A DNA stretch of 64,000 nt, from the IMG/VR virus record IMGVR_UViG_3300046337_000201, positions 1-64,000 of that record. One strand, written 5' to 3'. Shown piece by piece: positions 19,244-22,851 of this stretch. Position 1 is the first letter of the stretch; every line of letters starts with the position of its first letter. Source of the DNA: a virus. Made by a program: the position numbers and the translations under genes. Below the pieces are notes generated by a model. It searched no databases and had not been told where the DNA came from. It saw only the letters and a list, made by a program, of their open reading frames with translations.

Positions 19244-19699
19244 TTATAATGAAATTGAAGATATTACTTCTTTTATGCATTCGTCAATTGAAAATATGCT
19301 CGTATTGAGGAAAAGGTTACGATTGTTGACTCCACTAGGCACATCAAAATCCTTTACATGGAACTCTTCTCTACCCCTAATGTCATTGTATTTAAGATAG
19401 ACCCACACTACGTTTTCAGATATAGAGTCCAAGTATTCACGAGCTTCTTTAATAGGATAAACCGCACTAATGATAACTACTTTATACTTAGATTCTAAGT
19501 AAGTAGCAATATCACTAATACGATTAAGATTTTTGATTCTCCCCTCTTTTGAATAGTCTTTATTCTTAAAGATATTCCTTATTTCATCCCCATCAATTAT
19601 AGGAGGTGTGGGCTCATGTTGTAAGAATAAAGTTTCTTGTAACTTAGTAGCAAGAGTGGTTTTACCTGAGTGTGGTTGACCATAAAATACTATTATCAT
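19244..19699 (-). CDS. cysC: adenylyl-sulfate (APS) kinase
   Basis: GQPHSGKTT P-loop, IDGDEIR, YSKEGRIKN. Confidence 0.8.
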   Translation of the reverse strand: MIIVFYGQPHSGKTTLATKLQETLFLQHEPTPPIIDGDEIRNIFKNKDYSKEGRIKNLNRISDIATYLESKYKVVIISAVYPIKEAREYLDSISENVVWVYLKYNDIRGREEFHVKDFDVPSGVNNRNLFLNTSIFSIDECIKEVISSISL

Positions 19700-19745
19700 T
19701 GTATATTTTTACATAAAAATACAAAAATAAACGTACAATATAGAT

Positions 19746-20144
19746 TTATAATTGACCTTTTTGCTTCATTTCCTCACGAATCTTCGTAGCACTAATGTCA
19801 GCTATTTCACTAGGTGGAATGTATTCTACAATATCATATCCTACCCCTCTACCAAATGAAATTGAACACACATCAGGTATCTTCATAACCTTAATACGAC
19901 CCTCTTTTATCAAGTCAGCATAAAAGTCAGTAATGGTAACAAATACCTCACTAGCACTAAAAGGATTCTTTTCATCAGGTGCTACATCCCTAATGGCAAT
20001 TAATACGTTTCCACCCTCGTCTAACACTTGTTTAAAGAGTTTTTGATGACCTAAATGTAAAGGTTGCCACCGACCCACAAATAACGTAAACTGCCCTTCT
20101 TTCTTCTCTAAAGAGCTTTTAACATGTACTTTCTTATCCCACAT
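19746..20144 (-). CDS. HxGH nucleotidyltransferase (cytidyltransferase-like)
   Basis: GRWQPLHLGH, NPF, ISATKIR. Confidence 0.8.
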   Translation of the reverse strand: MWDKKVHVKSSLEKKEGQFTLFVGRWQPLHLGHQKLFKQVLDEGGNVLIAIRDVAPDEKNPFSASEVFVTITDFYADLIKEGRIKVMKIPDVCSISFGRGVGYDIVEYIPPSEIADISATKIREEMKQKGQL

Positions 20145-20150
20145 AAAATG

Positions 20151-20390
20151 CTATTTAATTATTGCTTTTACTTTGTTTAATTCCCATTTGTCTATGATAA
20201 CCTCGTTGGCTTCGGTAGACATATGCCATTTCATACCATGACCCTCTATAAAGGTTTCACTAGTCCATGTAGGGACTTCGCATCTTATGGTATTTACTAA
20301 AGTTTCTACTCCATCTACTAAAACCCTCCACTCAAATTGACTTTTTGAAGGGAAATTAGTGTTGAACCTAATATCAATTTTGTGTAGCAT
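20151..20390 (-). CDS. hypothetical protein
   Basis: 79-aa ORF inside the sulfation operon. Confidence 0.6.
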   Translation of the reverse strand: MLHKIDIRFNTNFPSKSQFEWRVLVDGVETLVNTIRCEVPTWTSETFIEGHGMKWHMSTEANEVIIDKWELNKVKAIIK

Positions 20391-20396
20391 AGTGTA

Positions 20397-21218
20397 TTAT
20401 TTAGTGTATCTAAATTGGTCGAAAAACCATTTGTAGTTATTCCAAACCCAGTCACAAATATCTTGTCCCAATAACGCTTGTGCTTTAGATAGGACGGGTG
20501 ATAATTTAGTTCTAATAACATGGTCTCCAAAAGCACCATACACTTCATCATCCTCTTTAGTAACTTGTTGTATATTGTCAAAATCGTGTTCAAAATAAGG
20601 TATTTCAAGATAATTGTATATTTTTTTCATTTGAGAATCAGGGTATAAACACAAGTCCTCAAACTTTATGAATAAAACATTATCAGATATTTTTAATCTA
20701 AACAACTCAGCTAGTCTTTCAATAGCCATCCCCACTGGTGGGTTTTGAGCCCATATATCCATTCGCTTTTGAACATTAGTGCCTTGCATCTTACTCCAAT
20801 CCAATATAGGGTCTTGTTTTTCAGGACTCTTTCTATAATTACCTTCCATAGAAGCAAAAATGTCTCTAAGGTCTCTAACCATACAAATAATCTTTGGCTT
20901 TTCTCCAATAACGAATTGTAAGAAGTCATGATGAATACCCCATCCTCTTGACTTATCTATTACATATTTTTTATCAGTTATTGCTTCGTAGAAAGAAATC
21001 ATACCACCTTTGCAAAAGGCTTGAAAACCTTTTTTCATTGTTTCTGCATCTTGAGCTTTAAACTCAGGACTATTGGTATAATTGGCTCTTGCGGCAAACA
21101 TCAACTCTAAAACACCACTCGTTGGAGTAGCGTAAATGTCAGGATTTTGAGCCATCAAATTCTGTAACAGGGTACTGCCCGAGCGAGGCAAAGAGCTTTG
21201 ATAAAAAATCTTTTTCAT
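20397..21218 (-). CDS. sulfotransferase
   Basis: 5'-PSB SLPRSGSTLL; 3'-PB VRDLRDIFAS; KFEDL. Confidence 0.9.
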   Translation of the reverse strand: MKKIFYQSSLPRSGSTLLQNLMAQNPDIYATPTSGVLELMFAARANYTNSPEFKAQDAETMKKGFQAFCKGGMISFYEAITDKKYVIDKSRGWGIHHDFLQFVIGEKPKIICMVRDLRDIFASMEGNYRKSPEKQDPILDWSKMQGTNVQKRMDIWAQNPPVGMAIERLAELFRLKISDNVLFIKFEDLCLYPDSQMKKIYNYLEIPYFEHDFDNIQQVTKEDDEVYGAFGDHVIRTKLSPVLSKAQALLGQDICDWVWNNYKWFFDQFRYTK

Positions 21219-21220
21219 GG

Positions 21221-21979
21221 TTATATTTTTTTAAAATGATGTTTACAACATGTTCCGTTGTTTTTTATTGATTGTCTTATTGCTTGATAACTAATATTAA
21301 ATTTTTTTGCAGCATCAATATATGAATTAAAAATTTCGTTTGTTTCTTCACATAATATTTTTACTCCATATATTAACTTTCTTGAATTTGATAAATTTAA
21401 CTTATGTTCTTTTGATTTTGGTTTTTTATTAATAATTTTTAAAATTTCTTTATTATGTTCAGTCATTGTTCTACCAATTTCTTTTTGTTTTTTAGAAATT
21501 TTCAATTTATGACTTTTAGATAAGCCTTTTACATAACCTAATTTTTCATAATAAATTAAATCTTCTTTTTTTACATATTTTACTAATTCATCTTTATAAA
21601 TCCATACTCTACCAAAACTAGGATTTTTATCTCCTTTAAATTTGTCTCTTAATTCTTGTAAACGATGCTCTGATAATTTTGTACCTCTAGTTGGATTTTC
21701 TATAAATTCACCAATATTAAATAATTCAATTCCATCATTTCTATATTTATTCGCCCAAAATGTTTCTCTCTCTATTAAATCATTGATATTACATTCTTCT
21801 ATAACTTCAAATAATAATGAATTAAATCCATATTTATTGTAACTATTTTGAAGATTAGGATTTGAACAATTATATTTTAGATTTGATTTATGTCTAAACC
21901 ATCTATTTTTTATATTAGAACTACTTCCAATATAAACTTTATTATTATTAATACAAGTTATTTTATAAATACCTATCAT
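21221..21979 (-). mobile_element. free-standing GIY-YIG homing endonuclease
   Basis: GIYKI...VYIGSS, NUMOD-type basic repeats. Confidence 0.85.
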
Positions 21980-22851
21980 TATTTTAAAGACTCAATTATC
22001 TCATCTAAATTAAACATTTCTCTTTCATCATTGTAAGGAAACTCTTGTAAGTCACCTGAAATGTTGTACTTGTTTAAATAAGAACTTCTTAATTGAATAT
22101 TATTTGTTTCTTTATTTGCAATGATATTAGTATGCATATCATACCCGAAAACGATAGGGCTATTAGCTATCCATAAAACTGAAGAAGGCTTGTCTAATGC
22201 TGCTGCTGCGTGTTGAGCAAAGCTATCCATTAATAACCTTTTTTCACTCATAGCTATTAAAACAAGTAAACCTCTAAAATTATCTTGAACACCTATGGTG
22301 CCATCATATTTTATTTGGTCATCTCTTCTAATATGTACAATGTTGTAAGCTTGGCTATACGTTTTGATAATTTCCAAAACGACATAAGAAGGAATATCTC
22401 TAGCCCATGAATATTTTAATTCAGATTGCCCACCTCCATTTGTTTGTAAAAGGAGAATAGGCTTATCTGAATTATATTTGTTTGCAAAGAAGTCAACTTC
22501 TCTTTTAGTAAGGAACAACTCACCTTTCTTCTTTACGATAGGCAAATTGAACATGTTACACCAAGTTTCGATTAAATGTTCTTCACATTTTATGTTTTTA
22601 GTCTCAAGATAAGGGTCATGAGCTAAAACAAGTATTTCTTGATTTTCAATGTACTCTTTATAAAAGTATTGTTGTCCTCCAAAAGCGTAAGTTCTATCTA
22701 CATTTGGATTGTTTAGATAGACTTCAGGATAGCCTGAAACAACAATTAGTTTACTAGTAGGGTACTTTTGCTTAATGGAAGCACAAACTGCGGTAGAGGC
22801 AATACACTTACCAATTCCACCATTAATTTGAAAAATAATTACATTAGGCAT
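21979..22851 (-). CDS. GT9-like (GT-B) glycosyltransferase
   Basis: GGIGK, NNPNVD, DSFAQHAAAAL. Confidence 0.75.
   Translation of the reverse strand: MPNVIIFQINGGIGKCIASTAVCASIKQKYPTSKLIVVSGYPEVYLNNPNVDRTYAFGGQQYFYKEYIENQEILVLAHDPYLETKNIKCEEHLIETWCNMFNLPIVKKKGELFLTKREVDFFANKYNSDKPILLLQTNGGGQSELKYSWARDIPSYVVLEIIKTYSQAYNIVHIRRDDQIKYDGTIGVQDNFRGLLVLIAMSEKRLLMDSFAQHAAAALDKPSSVLWIANSPIVFGYDMHTNIIANKETNNIQLRSSYLNKYNISGDLQEFPYNDEREMFNLDEIIESLK

Follow-up and report, generated by a model that had tools for sequence, protein, structure and literature searches.

Does a marine virus make, and use, its own activated sulfate? The question is raised by a minus-strand run of genes, tightly packed in the list of open reading frames (ORFs) from a GT9-like gene to a kinase gene, in the window, i.e. 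the whole 64,000-nucleotide stretch analysed here. This stretch belongs to a 75-kb record of an uncultured marine virus. An initial annotation had described the run as five genes (a GT9-like enzyme, a sulfotransferase, a small ORF, a 132-aa HxGH enzyme and cysC) and had read the 132-aa protein as a minimal ATP sulfurylase, the virus producing PAPS to sulfate its own surface glycans; these, it was suggested, might mimic the sulfated polysaccharides to which Bacteroidota bind. The five genes were all found where they had been placed, on the minus strand, and the enzyme genes can be identified at the family level, the GT9-like one less clearly than the others.

Judging from the sequences, the run is rather probably a self-sufficient sulfation cassette, in which the nucleotidyltransferase (NT), the kinase and the sulfotransferase would provide the virus with PAPS and consume it. 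The candidate NT would adenylylate sulfate (ATP + sulfate -> APS + PPi). The APS would then be phosphorylated at its 3'-OH by the lid-less APS-kinase-like protein, giving PAPS, and the sulfotransferase would finally transfer the sulfate of PAPS, most likely to a sugar provided by the adjacent GT9-like enzyme.

The gene run and its surroundings

The first gene of the run (21979–22851, minus strand) encodes a 290-aa GT9-like glycosyltransferase of the GT-B type. The protein matches phrog_8954 weakly, has no Pfam match at E<=0.01 and no sequence match to the PDB; its Atlas look-alikes (TM 0.80) are viral clusters in which only 15–32% of the members carry PF01075 (Glyco_transf_9). Nine related viral loci have a homologue, 57–60% identical, directly upstream of the sulfotransferase gene, and this glycosyltransferase probably installs the sugar that is sulfated later. 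In the window the two genes are separated by a GIY-YIG homing endonuclease of 252 aa (21221–21979, minus strand; PF01541, 1.9e-11; phrog_314, 2e-22), which the five-gene description had overlooked. It is missing at this place from all nine related loci, and since the glycosyltransferase and sulfotransferase genes directly adjoin there, the endonuclease gene is an insertion: a mobile element, and no enzyme of the pathway. A second GIY-YIG endonuclease (22861–23595, minus strand; PF01541, I-TevI DNA-binding domain and NUMOD3; phrog_314) flanks the cassette.

Further upstream lie four repeat-rich fibre-like paralogues of 421, 514, 451 and 628 aa (24074–30209, minus strand), with weak beta-roll-type Pfam matches only, and downstream of the run the ORF list contains small proteins with C-terminal hydrophobic segments, in agreement with the fibre and membrane genes between which the run had been placed. 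The 421-aa protein has homologues beside the cassette in eight of the nine related loci with the sulfotransferase, and the fibre-like paralogues are a possible target of sulfation. A promoter and terminator scan of 18700–24200 gave a site count not above that of shuffled sequence. As for the small 79-aa ORF (20151–20390, minus strand), it has no family match in Pfam, NCBIfam or PHROGs; its homologues adjoin the NT gene in three related loci (L006, L007 and L012), so that it travels with some cassettes.

The sulfotransferase (273 aa; 20397–21218, minus strand) is of the PAPS type: it matches PF13469 (1.3e-14, 55.5 bits) and PF00685 (1.1e-13, 51.6 bits), its 5'-PSB motif PRSGST and its 3'-phosphate motif R115...S123 are invariant in our alignment A4, and its top 50 Foldseek matches are all PAP(S)-binding sulfotransferases. 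As the R...S motif is kept, the donor must be 3'-phosphorylated. The predicted model (pLDDT 66) and the fold matches do not show the class of the acceptor, and the match to NoeE is weak (33 bits). The acceptor could be a glycan of the virion fibres or, equally, the host envelope or a protein tyrosine.

The kinase and its linkage to the nucleotidyltransferase

The last gene of the run (19244–19699, minus strand) encodes a P-loop kinase of 151 aa, which had been called cysC. By sequence it is related to the APS kinases: PF01583 (APS_kinase) is matched with 56.6 bits for a gathering cut-off of 21.1, and its top matches in the PDB belong to this family without exception. G7, G12, K13, D36-G37-D38, R41, N57 and P82 are invariant, and R54 nearly so, among phage-type and canonical kinases; the P-loop, the DGD motif and the Arg and Asn residues of the APS site (R41, R54 and N57) are all kept. 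The name cysC is nevertheless too strong, as about 16 lid residues are deleted and the protein falls under every NCBIfam APS-kinase cut-off (47.8 bits for TIGR00455, whose cut-off is 138.7). For these two reasons its substrate is less certain than that of the canonical kinases to which NT homologues are fused; we infer that it is APS, which makes the protein a candidate APS 3'-kinase.

APS-kinase homologues can indeed act on other nucleotides. In the MeOPN pathway of Campylobacter jejuni (Cj1415–Cj1418), a nucleotidyltransferase (here a cytidylyltransferase) and the APS-kinase homologue Cj1415, which phosphorylates CDP-amidate, provide a 3'-phosphorylated nucleotide donor for surface glycans (PMC11800397), an arrangement similar to the one proposed here. 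The donor is in that case a cytidine phosphoramidate. By analogy, and given the divergence of the window kinase, the NT and the kinase might make a different donor that resembles PAPS, namely a 3'-phospho-NDP-X (a phosphoramidate, for instance), the sulfotransferase-fold enzyme transferring that group instead of sulfate. We find this unlikely. The MeOPN pathway also needs a glutamine kinase (Cj1418-like) and a gamma-glutamyl hydrolase (Cj1417-like), and neither has a counterpart among the ORFs of the run, all of which are accounted for, or among those that adjoin it. We know of no link, moreover, between the MeOPN pathway and sulfate assimilation genes.

The partners of the NT in other genomes point rather to APS and PAPS. 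Our survey of gene neighbourhoods, a check that had been suggested with the initial annotation, found the kinase and NT genes side by side in every one of the 16 related viral loci. Of the best 80 bacterial and archaeal loci, about 57 have the NT fused to or adjoining an APS kinase, frequently a bona fide one, and either of the two can come first; such recurrence places the linkage far beyond chance. The order is not fixed. The NT gene precedes that of the kinase in the window and follows it in all 16 viral loci, nine of which have the succession GT9-like, sulfotransferase, kinase, NT; the linkage itself is kept. In the fusions, NT homologues with 41–50% identity are joined to APS kinase domains scoring 158–257 bits with TIGR00455, above its equivalog cut-off of 138.7; that many NT partners pass this cut-off argues against a phosphoramidate. 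The kinase domain comes first in P0154 and the NT domain first in P0191, P0151, P0140 and P0217; these fusions are spread over several distinct clades in the tree of the NT and thus arose more than once.

Other genes recur in the neighbourhood. In 14 cellular loci the NT has sulfotransferase-like genes at a distance of up to about 6 kb, sugar epimerases are found near it in nine, and CysQ-like Inositol_P genes in five; the latter, too, fit PAPS. In G001 (complete, 179 kb), G002, G005 and Stenotrophomonas phage DLP_6, a Sulfotransfer_2 gene takes the place of the window-type sulfotransferase. Phages with a carbamoyltransferase where the sulfotransferase would stand, G001 among them, had been considered as counter-examples, being devoid of PF13469, PF00685 and a homologue of the window enzyme; we rejected them as such, for PF03567 (Sulfotransfer_2) is above its cut-off in G001, G002 and G005.

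Descent of the nucleotidyltransferase and its occurrence relative to Sat and CysD

The NT (132 aa; 19746–20144, minus strand) has PF01467 as its sole Pfam domain (33.8 bits, gathering cut-off 21). Its AF2 model is a single domain with a Rossmann-like fold (pLDDT 93). In alignment A1 the family shows the motifs GRWQPxHxGH, IRD, KNP, PDI, GRxVGY and ISATxIR; HxGH and SxTxxR, which in the window protein are HLGH at residues 30–33 and ISATKIR at 117–123, are near-invariant. The closest solved proteins, by sequence and by fold, are NMN adenylyltransferases (NMNATs) and PPAT, not ATP sulfurylases; the nearest are the archaeal/NadM NMNATs (58.6 bits to the family profile, fold Z 9.8), represented by 1f9a, 1ej2 and 2qjo, with which the NT has in common the GR(F/W)QPxHxGH and the terminal SxTxxR motifs. 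Could it then be a true NMN adenylyltransferase, forming with a ribosylnicotinamide kinase a NadR-like unit of NAD salvage that lies beside the sulfotransferase merely by chance? Besides this kinship, the fused form of Xylella phage Bacata would agree with such a role, as it stands, in the early-gene region, next to a COG3236 gene, which we take to be of the YbiA/NADAR type.

The details of the sequence make NAD salvage most improbable. The NT scores only 33.4 and 37.4 bits with the NMNAT models TIGR01527 and NF002243, whose cut-offs are 181 and 127. It is about 40 residues shorter than the archaeal/NadM enzymes, has IRD in place of their GIGS-type loop, and aligns with 1f9a and 1ej2 over profile positions 10–83 only, i.e. 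over its N-terminal half: the homology ends at the PDI strand, beyond which the NT has a loop with the invariant G98-R99. It is the C-terminal half of NMNAT that holds NMN. Two arginines, R52 and R99, are invariant in alignment A1 and new relative to NMNAT (the fused member P0151 has His for the otherwise invariant Arg99). Archaeal proteins of 165–198 aa that resemble true NMNATs form a long-branch outgroup in the NT tree, with no kinase neighbour. The genomic partners of the NT are APS kinases and sulfotransferases instead of NAD genes, the window kinase matches APS kinases and not NadR-type kinases, and NAD salvage would leave unexplained both the linkage to sulfotransferase and CysQ-like genes and the exclusion of Sat and CysD described below.

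By descent, the sequences indicate, the NT is an archaeal-NMNAT-like protein in shortened form, with a new C-terminal half; the NMN-binding half of the ancestor would have been swapped for the short loop with the invariant Gly-Arg. It is a homologue of neither Sat nor CysD; with its HxGH and ISxTxxR motifs it falls, like Sat, in the HUP nucleotidyltransferase superfamily. At 132 aa and with one domain, it has neither the length of Sat (about 350–400 aa) nor a Sat-like N-terminal PUA-like domain, and PF01747, the Sat catalytic domain, was found neither in the NT nor elsewhere in the 75-kb viral record; PF01507, of the CysD and PAPS-reductase type, was absent from the record as well. The proposal of a minimal ATP sulfurylase supplying viral PAPS retains the support of the fusions to bona fide APS kinases in both orders, of the near-universal adjacency, of the sulfotransferase and CysQ-like neighbours and of the exclusion seen in one phylum, while its original rationale has to be corrected, the protein being no trimmed Sat.

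Comparisons of fold do not tell the candidate substrates apart: NMNAT, PPAT, NadR and Sat all fall at Z 7.5–9.8, Thermus Sat (1v47) aligning with Z 7.5 over 114 residues. With hhalign the probability is 4% for the NT family against single Sat sequences and 38% against a Sat profile, the N-terminal part being out of register, so that this alignment is suggestive only. It puts the ISAT of the NT on the ISGT of Sat, and the IRD (R52-D53) on the GRD of GRDHAG, the sulfate-loop motif of Sat, at that same low probability; a second candidate for such a motif is the invariant G98-R99 loop. We infer that sulfate would be the second substrate of the NT.

HldC (5x9q, Z 6.1) is also among the fold matches. 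It, too, is a small enzyme with HxGH, about as large as the NT, and the NT might by this token be an HldC- or RfaE-domain-II-like sugar-phosphate nucleotidyltransferase making ADP-heptose, a GT9 substrate, or another NDP-sugar for the GT9-like enzyme; the kinase alone would then serve sulfation, on host APS. The HAD-like phosphatase genes that follow the NT in some related loci would suit such a pathway. We nevertheless hold it to be very unlikely: NMNAT and PPAT both give clearly better fold matches than HldC, no SIS/GmhA gene was found in the viral record, most viral and cellular NT-kinase loci are without a GT9-like gene, the fusion partner is an APS kinase and not a sugar kinase, and the exclusion of Sat and CysD would again remain unexplained.

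This exclusion was found in cellular genomes, scanned with five NT-domain sequences (A2) since alignment A1 was too diverse for this use. For the Dadabacteria-type phylum, 120 genomes were scanned: 78 carry the NT, 18 Sat and 15 CysD, and the three never occur together, not even in pairs (Fisher p ~1e-21, kinship between genomes being ignored); the pattern may reflect a few clades rather than many independent events. APS kinase is found in 92 of these genomes, 74 of which have the NT and 15 Sat. Five complete chromosomes of this phylum carry the NT with CysC and CysH above cut-off, and neither Sat nor CysD. That the NT stands in for Sat and CysD where the PAPS reductase CysH is kept fits sulfate and not a phosphoramidate. 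About 30 of 44 other genomes with NT and kinase lack both Sat and CysD. A strict exclusion was not reproduced in Pelagibacteraceae (SAR11): the NT is present in 53 of the 121 sampled genomes, including four of the five Sat-positive and one of the eight CysD-positive ones. Some Omnitrophota combine an NT-kinase fusion with a CysD-like gene, and in Marinimicrobia the NT is found in only three of 121 genomes, too few for a test of exclusion.

Known sulfation systems and significance

The arrangement of the window recalls two known ways of making PAPS. In the Sat-CysC pairs and fusions, like the PAPS synthases of animals (PAPSS1/2, 1x6v) and the proteins of Aquifex (2gks) and Penicillium (1i2d), sulfate adenylylation and APS 3'-phosphorylation are likewise encoded side by side or fused, in either order, and the sulfurylase part has, as the NT, a HUP fold with HxxH and ISxTxxR-type motifs. 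The window differs from them by a much smaller nucleotidyltransferase of NMNAT-like descent, devoid of PF01747 and of the PUA-like domain (PF14306), by a kinase without lid, and by the location of the two activities on separate genes. In rhizobia, NodP/NodQ with NodH (and NoeE) place a private supply of PAPS beside a carbohydrate sulfotransferase, apart from housekeeping sulfur assimilation, as the window would do. NodPQ are homologues of CysD and CysN-CysC and are GTPase-coupled; the viral record of the window, by contrast, has no CysD-type gene.

All assimilation and dissimilation of sulfate, and all sulfation, begin with the activation of sulfate, and to our knowledge only two types of ATP sulfurylase are recognised, Sat and CysDN. 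The sequence data lead us to favour, with moderate confidence, the view that the NT represents a third, analogous class, single-domain and NMNAT-derived (about 115–150 aa), widespread in phages, bacteria and archaea, which would take over from Sat and CysDN in entire lineages, the Dadabacteria-type phylum for one, and would be a private source of PAPS for many SAR11 genomes and for the phages that carry it. A full-text search of the literature, incomplete in its coverage, brought up no paper on an HxGH ATP sulfurylase of small size.

If this view is correct, pathway holes would be closed, for instance in the complete Dadabacteria-type chromosomes that have CysC and CysH and no known sulfurylase, and the finding would matter for our picture of sulfur physiology in SAR11, given the frequency of the NT in the sampled genomes. 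As NT genes are now annotated as NMN adenylyltransferase or cytidylyltransferase, the reading of sulfur metabolism from metagenomes would change. The small size of the enzyme would also make it attractive for the enzymatic regeneration of PAPS. As for the phages, they would possess all that is needed to go from inorganic sulfate to a sulfated product by a route of their own. We know of no phage for which decoration with sulfate has yet been demonstrated; here the product would probably be a decoration of the fibres or of the surface of the infected cell.

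Gene content of the cassette

The minus-strand gene run announced by the initial annotation is confirmed at 19244-22851, with corrections: ORF calling finds six tightly packed ORFs, one of which, a GIY-YIG homing endonuclease of 252 aa (21221-21979), had been missed. The others, also on the minus strand, encode a GT9-like protein of 290 aa (21979-22851), a sulfotransferase of 273 aa (20397-21218; PF13469 at 1.3e-14, PF00685 at 1.1e-13), a 79-aa product without family (20151-20390), the HxGH nucleotidyltransferase of 132 aa, hereafter NT (19746-20144; PF01467, 33.8 bits), and a P-loop kinase of 151 aa (19244-19699; PF01583 APS_kinase, 56.6 bits). 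The virus record comprises 75,160 bases, for an estimated completeness of 67%. The Pfam search gave no match for the GT9-like protein; its look-alikes in the Atlas are exclusively viral clusters, and in some of these 15-32% of the members have PF01075 (Glyco_transf_9).

A second GIY-YIG endonuclease (22861-23595) lies just upstream of the cassette, and the GT9-like gene is bracketed by the two. The first looks like a recent mobile insertion, since the glycosyltransferase-sulfotransferase pair is contiguous in all nine of nine related loci. Further upstream stand four fibre-like paralogues (24074-30209), with Gly/Asn/Ser-rich repeats, weak beta-roll matches and a common C-terminal motif, LPTSAAGLPTGxxWN..G.L.I(V/A); downstream are small proteins bearing C-terminal hydrophobic segments.

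The best PDB matches of the kinase are APS kinases without exception. It retains the P-loop, the DGD motif, R41, R54 and N57, lacks about 16 lid residues and scores under every NCBIfam APS-kinase cut-off. The sulfotransferase retains the 5'-phosphosulfate loop (PRSGST) and the Arg-x8-Ser pair, which in known sulfotransferases binds the 3'-phosphate of PAPS; G14, R115 and S123 are invariant over 16 viral and cellular relatives. Its model is of moderate confidence (pLDDT 66), and the top 50 PDB matches are PAP(S)-binding sulfotransferases only. The retained motifs and these fold matches suggest that the donor should be a 3'-phosphorylated nucleotide.

Descent of NT and its linkage to APS kinase

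NT displays the motifs GRWQPLHLGH and ISATKIR, and among proteins of solved structure it is closest to the archaeal and NadM-type NMN adenylyltransferases (NMNATs); the family profile scores 58.6 bits against 1f9a, confined to profile positions 10-83. The model, of high confidence (pLDDT 93.4), matches NMNAT (Z 9.8), PPAT (9.6), NadM (9.0) and, lower, Thermus ATP sulfurylase 1v47 (7.5). In the family alignment P61, G98, R99 and R123 are invariant (Arg99 is present in every member of the 61-sequence alignment), and R25, Q27, H30, H33, R52 and N60 nearly so; nothing in the NMNAT alignments corresponds to the IRD loop or to the G98-R99 loop. P0151, an Acidobacteriota NT-APSK fusion (locus L029), deviates by a His at the Arg99 position, GH.VGY for GR.VGY. 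Neither PF01747 (Sat) nor PF01507 (CysD/CysH) has a match across the viral record, and the profile comparison of NT with Sat is weak (38% probability), placing IRD opposite GRD(HAG) and ISAT opposite ISGT. NT thus belongs to neither known sulfurylase family, and its matches indicate an NMNAT-like protein that was shortened in descent rather than a Sat reduced in size. Public annotations of its relatives read cytidylyltransferase-like or NMN adenylyltransferase. In three metagenome proteins (P0162, P0187, P0218) a Cys-rich, HNH-like region of about 180-240 aa precedes the NT domain as an N-terminal fusion, which may reflect joining to a homing endonuclease or miscalled adjacent phage-contig genes.

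The exhaustive search returned 1140 NT relatives. Many are fused to APS kinase domains scoring 158-257 bits, for a TIGR00455 equivalog cut-off of 138.7, in both orders, APSK-NT and NT-APSK; one Acidobacteriota fusion is annotated as adenylyl-sulfate kinase only. The short phage-type kinase is also found fused to NT, in P0142, P0128 and phrog_10255 of Xylella and Stenotrophomonas phages. On the association with APS kinase, the gene-neighbourhood survey bears the initial annotation out: the kinase gene is immediately 5' of NT, usually overlapping it, in 16/16 related viral loci, and of the best 80 cellular loci, drawn from 185,579 species genomes, about 57 have NT next to an APS-kinase-like gene or fused with it. 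As the order of NT and kinase in the window is opposite to that of the related viral loci, this linkage survived a rearrangement. In the NT-domain tree, fusions of either order are distributed over several distinct clades. A well-supported clade made up of 17 viral sequences contains the window's NT; this clade groups most closely with sequences from Bacteroidota, Marinimicrobia and Chitinophagaceae, a placement that does not identify the host. No kinase gene adjoins NT in the case of seven archaeal or CPR proteins (164-198 aa), which are probably true NMNATs; the six included in the tree form its long-branch outgroup.

The nearest homologues of NT would fit a NadR-like NAD-salvage pair formed with the kinase; however, the NMNAT-model scores are a misfit, the C-terminal half of NT is replaced, and neither the nature of the kinase nor the gene context fits.

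Neighbouring genes add to the picture. In 14 cellular loci a sulfotransferase-like gene is found no more than about 6 kb from NT, in several of them right beside it; 5 cellular loci have CysQ-like Inositol_P genes, and 9 have sugar-nucleotide epimerases. Nine viral loci share the order GT9-like, sulfotransferase, kinase, NT, in most cases with fibre genes on both sides. A GT9-like neighbour would agree with NT being an HldC-like sugar-phosphate adenylyltransferase that supplies the GT9-like enzyme, but many NT loci have no such transferase, the fusion partner of NT is APS kinase, and no GmhA-like gene was found in the viral record.

In another phage group (L010:5928-7499, L013:6048-7595) a NodU/CmcH-type carbamoyltransferase is directly 5' of the kinase-NT pair and occupies the slot that holds the sulfotransferase in loci of the window's type; genes for UDP-glucose dehydrogenase and for dTDP/GDP-sugar enzymes are nearby, the slot being one of variable glycan decoration. 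Such loci were rejected as counter-examples: Sulfotransfer_2 is above the Pfam cut-off in genomes G001 (complete), G002 and G005. At 2.5 kb downstream of NT in these two loci, proteins of 243 aa (L010:10865-11596) and 233 aa (L013:10852-11553) have PKxxS/PRCATTS-like and KRDxxxxxIS-like motifs recalling Sulfotransfer_2 donor sites; with no match in the Pfam search, they may be very divergent sulfotransferases.

Distribution of NT, Sat and CysD

Across the 120 genomes of the Dadabacteria/Thermodesulfobacteriota-type phylum in which the stand-alone 152-aa NT occurs, 78 contain NT, 18 contain Sat and 15 contain CysD, and no two of these genes ever share a genome (0/120; Fisher's test p ~1e-21, which ignores shared ancestry and so overstates independence). 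APS kinase occurs in 92, accompanied by NT in 74, by Sat in 15 and by neither in 3. Five complete chromosomes contain NT, one canonical APS kinase and CysH above cut-off, with no Sat or CysD: this is an assimilatory pathway missing its first enzyme only. Of 44 further NT-kinase genomes, many of them incomplete MAGs, about 30 lack both Sat and CysD. Within the phylum to which G050 belongs, a lineage of reduced genomes about 1 Mb in size (G154, G156-G169) has CysD and lacks a PF01583 APS kinase, Sat and NT; it presumably uses the APS-reductase route.

The exclusion is not a rule, as the Pelagibacteraceae (SAR11 family) indicate: NT is found in 53 of 121 sampled genomes (40 of the 53 with a PF01583 match) and Sat or CysD in only 13, yet NT is also present in 4 of the 5 genomes with Sat and in 1 of the 8 with CysD. 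In this family (G290-G409, e.g. G390:C1:351278-352041) a short APS-kinase-like gene of about 137 aa is often directly upstream of NT. Some Omnitrophota likewise combine an NT-kinase fusion with a CysD-like gene. Rhizobia have redundant sulfate activation, CysDN plus NodPQ, so that such co-occurrence weakens the sulfurylase argument but does not refute it.

Fusions, adjacency, sulfotransferase and CysQ-like neighbours and the phyletic pattern, joined by the other genomes, together suggest that NT is NEVERTHELESS probably an ATP sulfurylase. The minimal sulfurylase of the initial annotation is thus retained as the probable activity, favoured by APSK fusions, adjacency, neighbours and exclusion, but not for a derivation from Sat, NT being NMNAT-like by descent. 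The most serious rival is a PAPS-like phosphoramidate donor, after the MeOPN pathway of Campylobacter, in which an APS-kinase homologue is also employed, phosphorylating CDP-amidate (PMC11800397). The run has no counterpart of the glutamine kinase or hydrolase used there, and in CysH-bearing genomes the fact that NT replaces Sat/CysD points to sulfate.

The acceptor and the module as a whole

The acceptor class is not readable from the motifs, model or fold matches of the sulfotransferase. In related viral loci a GT9-like gene always accompanies the window-type sulfotransferase, and fibre paralogues are beside the cassette in most. The window also encodes further glycosyltransferases and methyltransferases, and a 1295-aa protein (12468-16355), without Pfam family, that has long internal repeats and more than 10 poly-Thr/Ser tracts; it is mucin-like, plausibly a substrate of O-glycosylation or sulfation. 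Given the GT9-like linkage, the fibre flanks, these modifying genes and the Thr/Ser-rich protein, it is reasonable to guess at a sulfated glycan on fibre or spike. The alternatives are sulfation of the host envelope or of tyrosine: the first PDB match of the sulfotransferase model is a tyrosylprotein sulfotransferase, and TPST1 is, weakly, the enzyme's best PDB sequence match.

Two cultured phages, Xylella phage Bacata and Stenotrophomonas phage DLP_6, are usable experimental systems. Both carry the fused kinase-NT gene (phrog_10255, with the annotation 'kinase') in an early or DNA-metabolism region, at 29138-29878 of the Bacata record (L001), where it adjoins a COG3236-type gene, and at 129043-129774 of that of DLP_6 (L002). 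About 90 kb from its fusion gene, DLP_6 has a Sulfotransfer_2 gene that passes the Pfam cut-off; the same search of Bacata gave only a weak, sub-threshold match.

A full-text literature search found no enzyme of the NT type described. Taken together, the module would function in the manner of NodPQ-NodH, or of a PAPS synthase plus sulfotransferase. Its first enzyme fits neither known sulfurylase family. The module would thus be a known kind of system with probably a new enzyme class.
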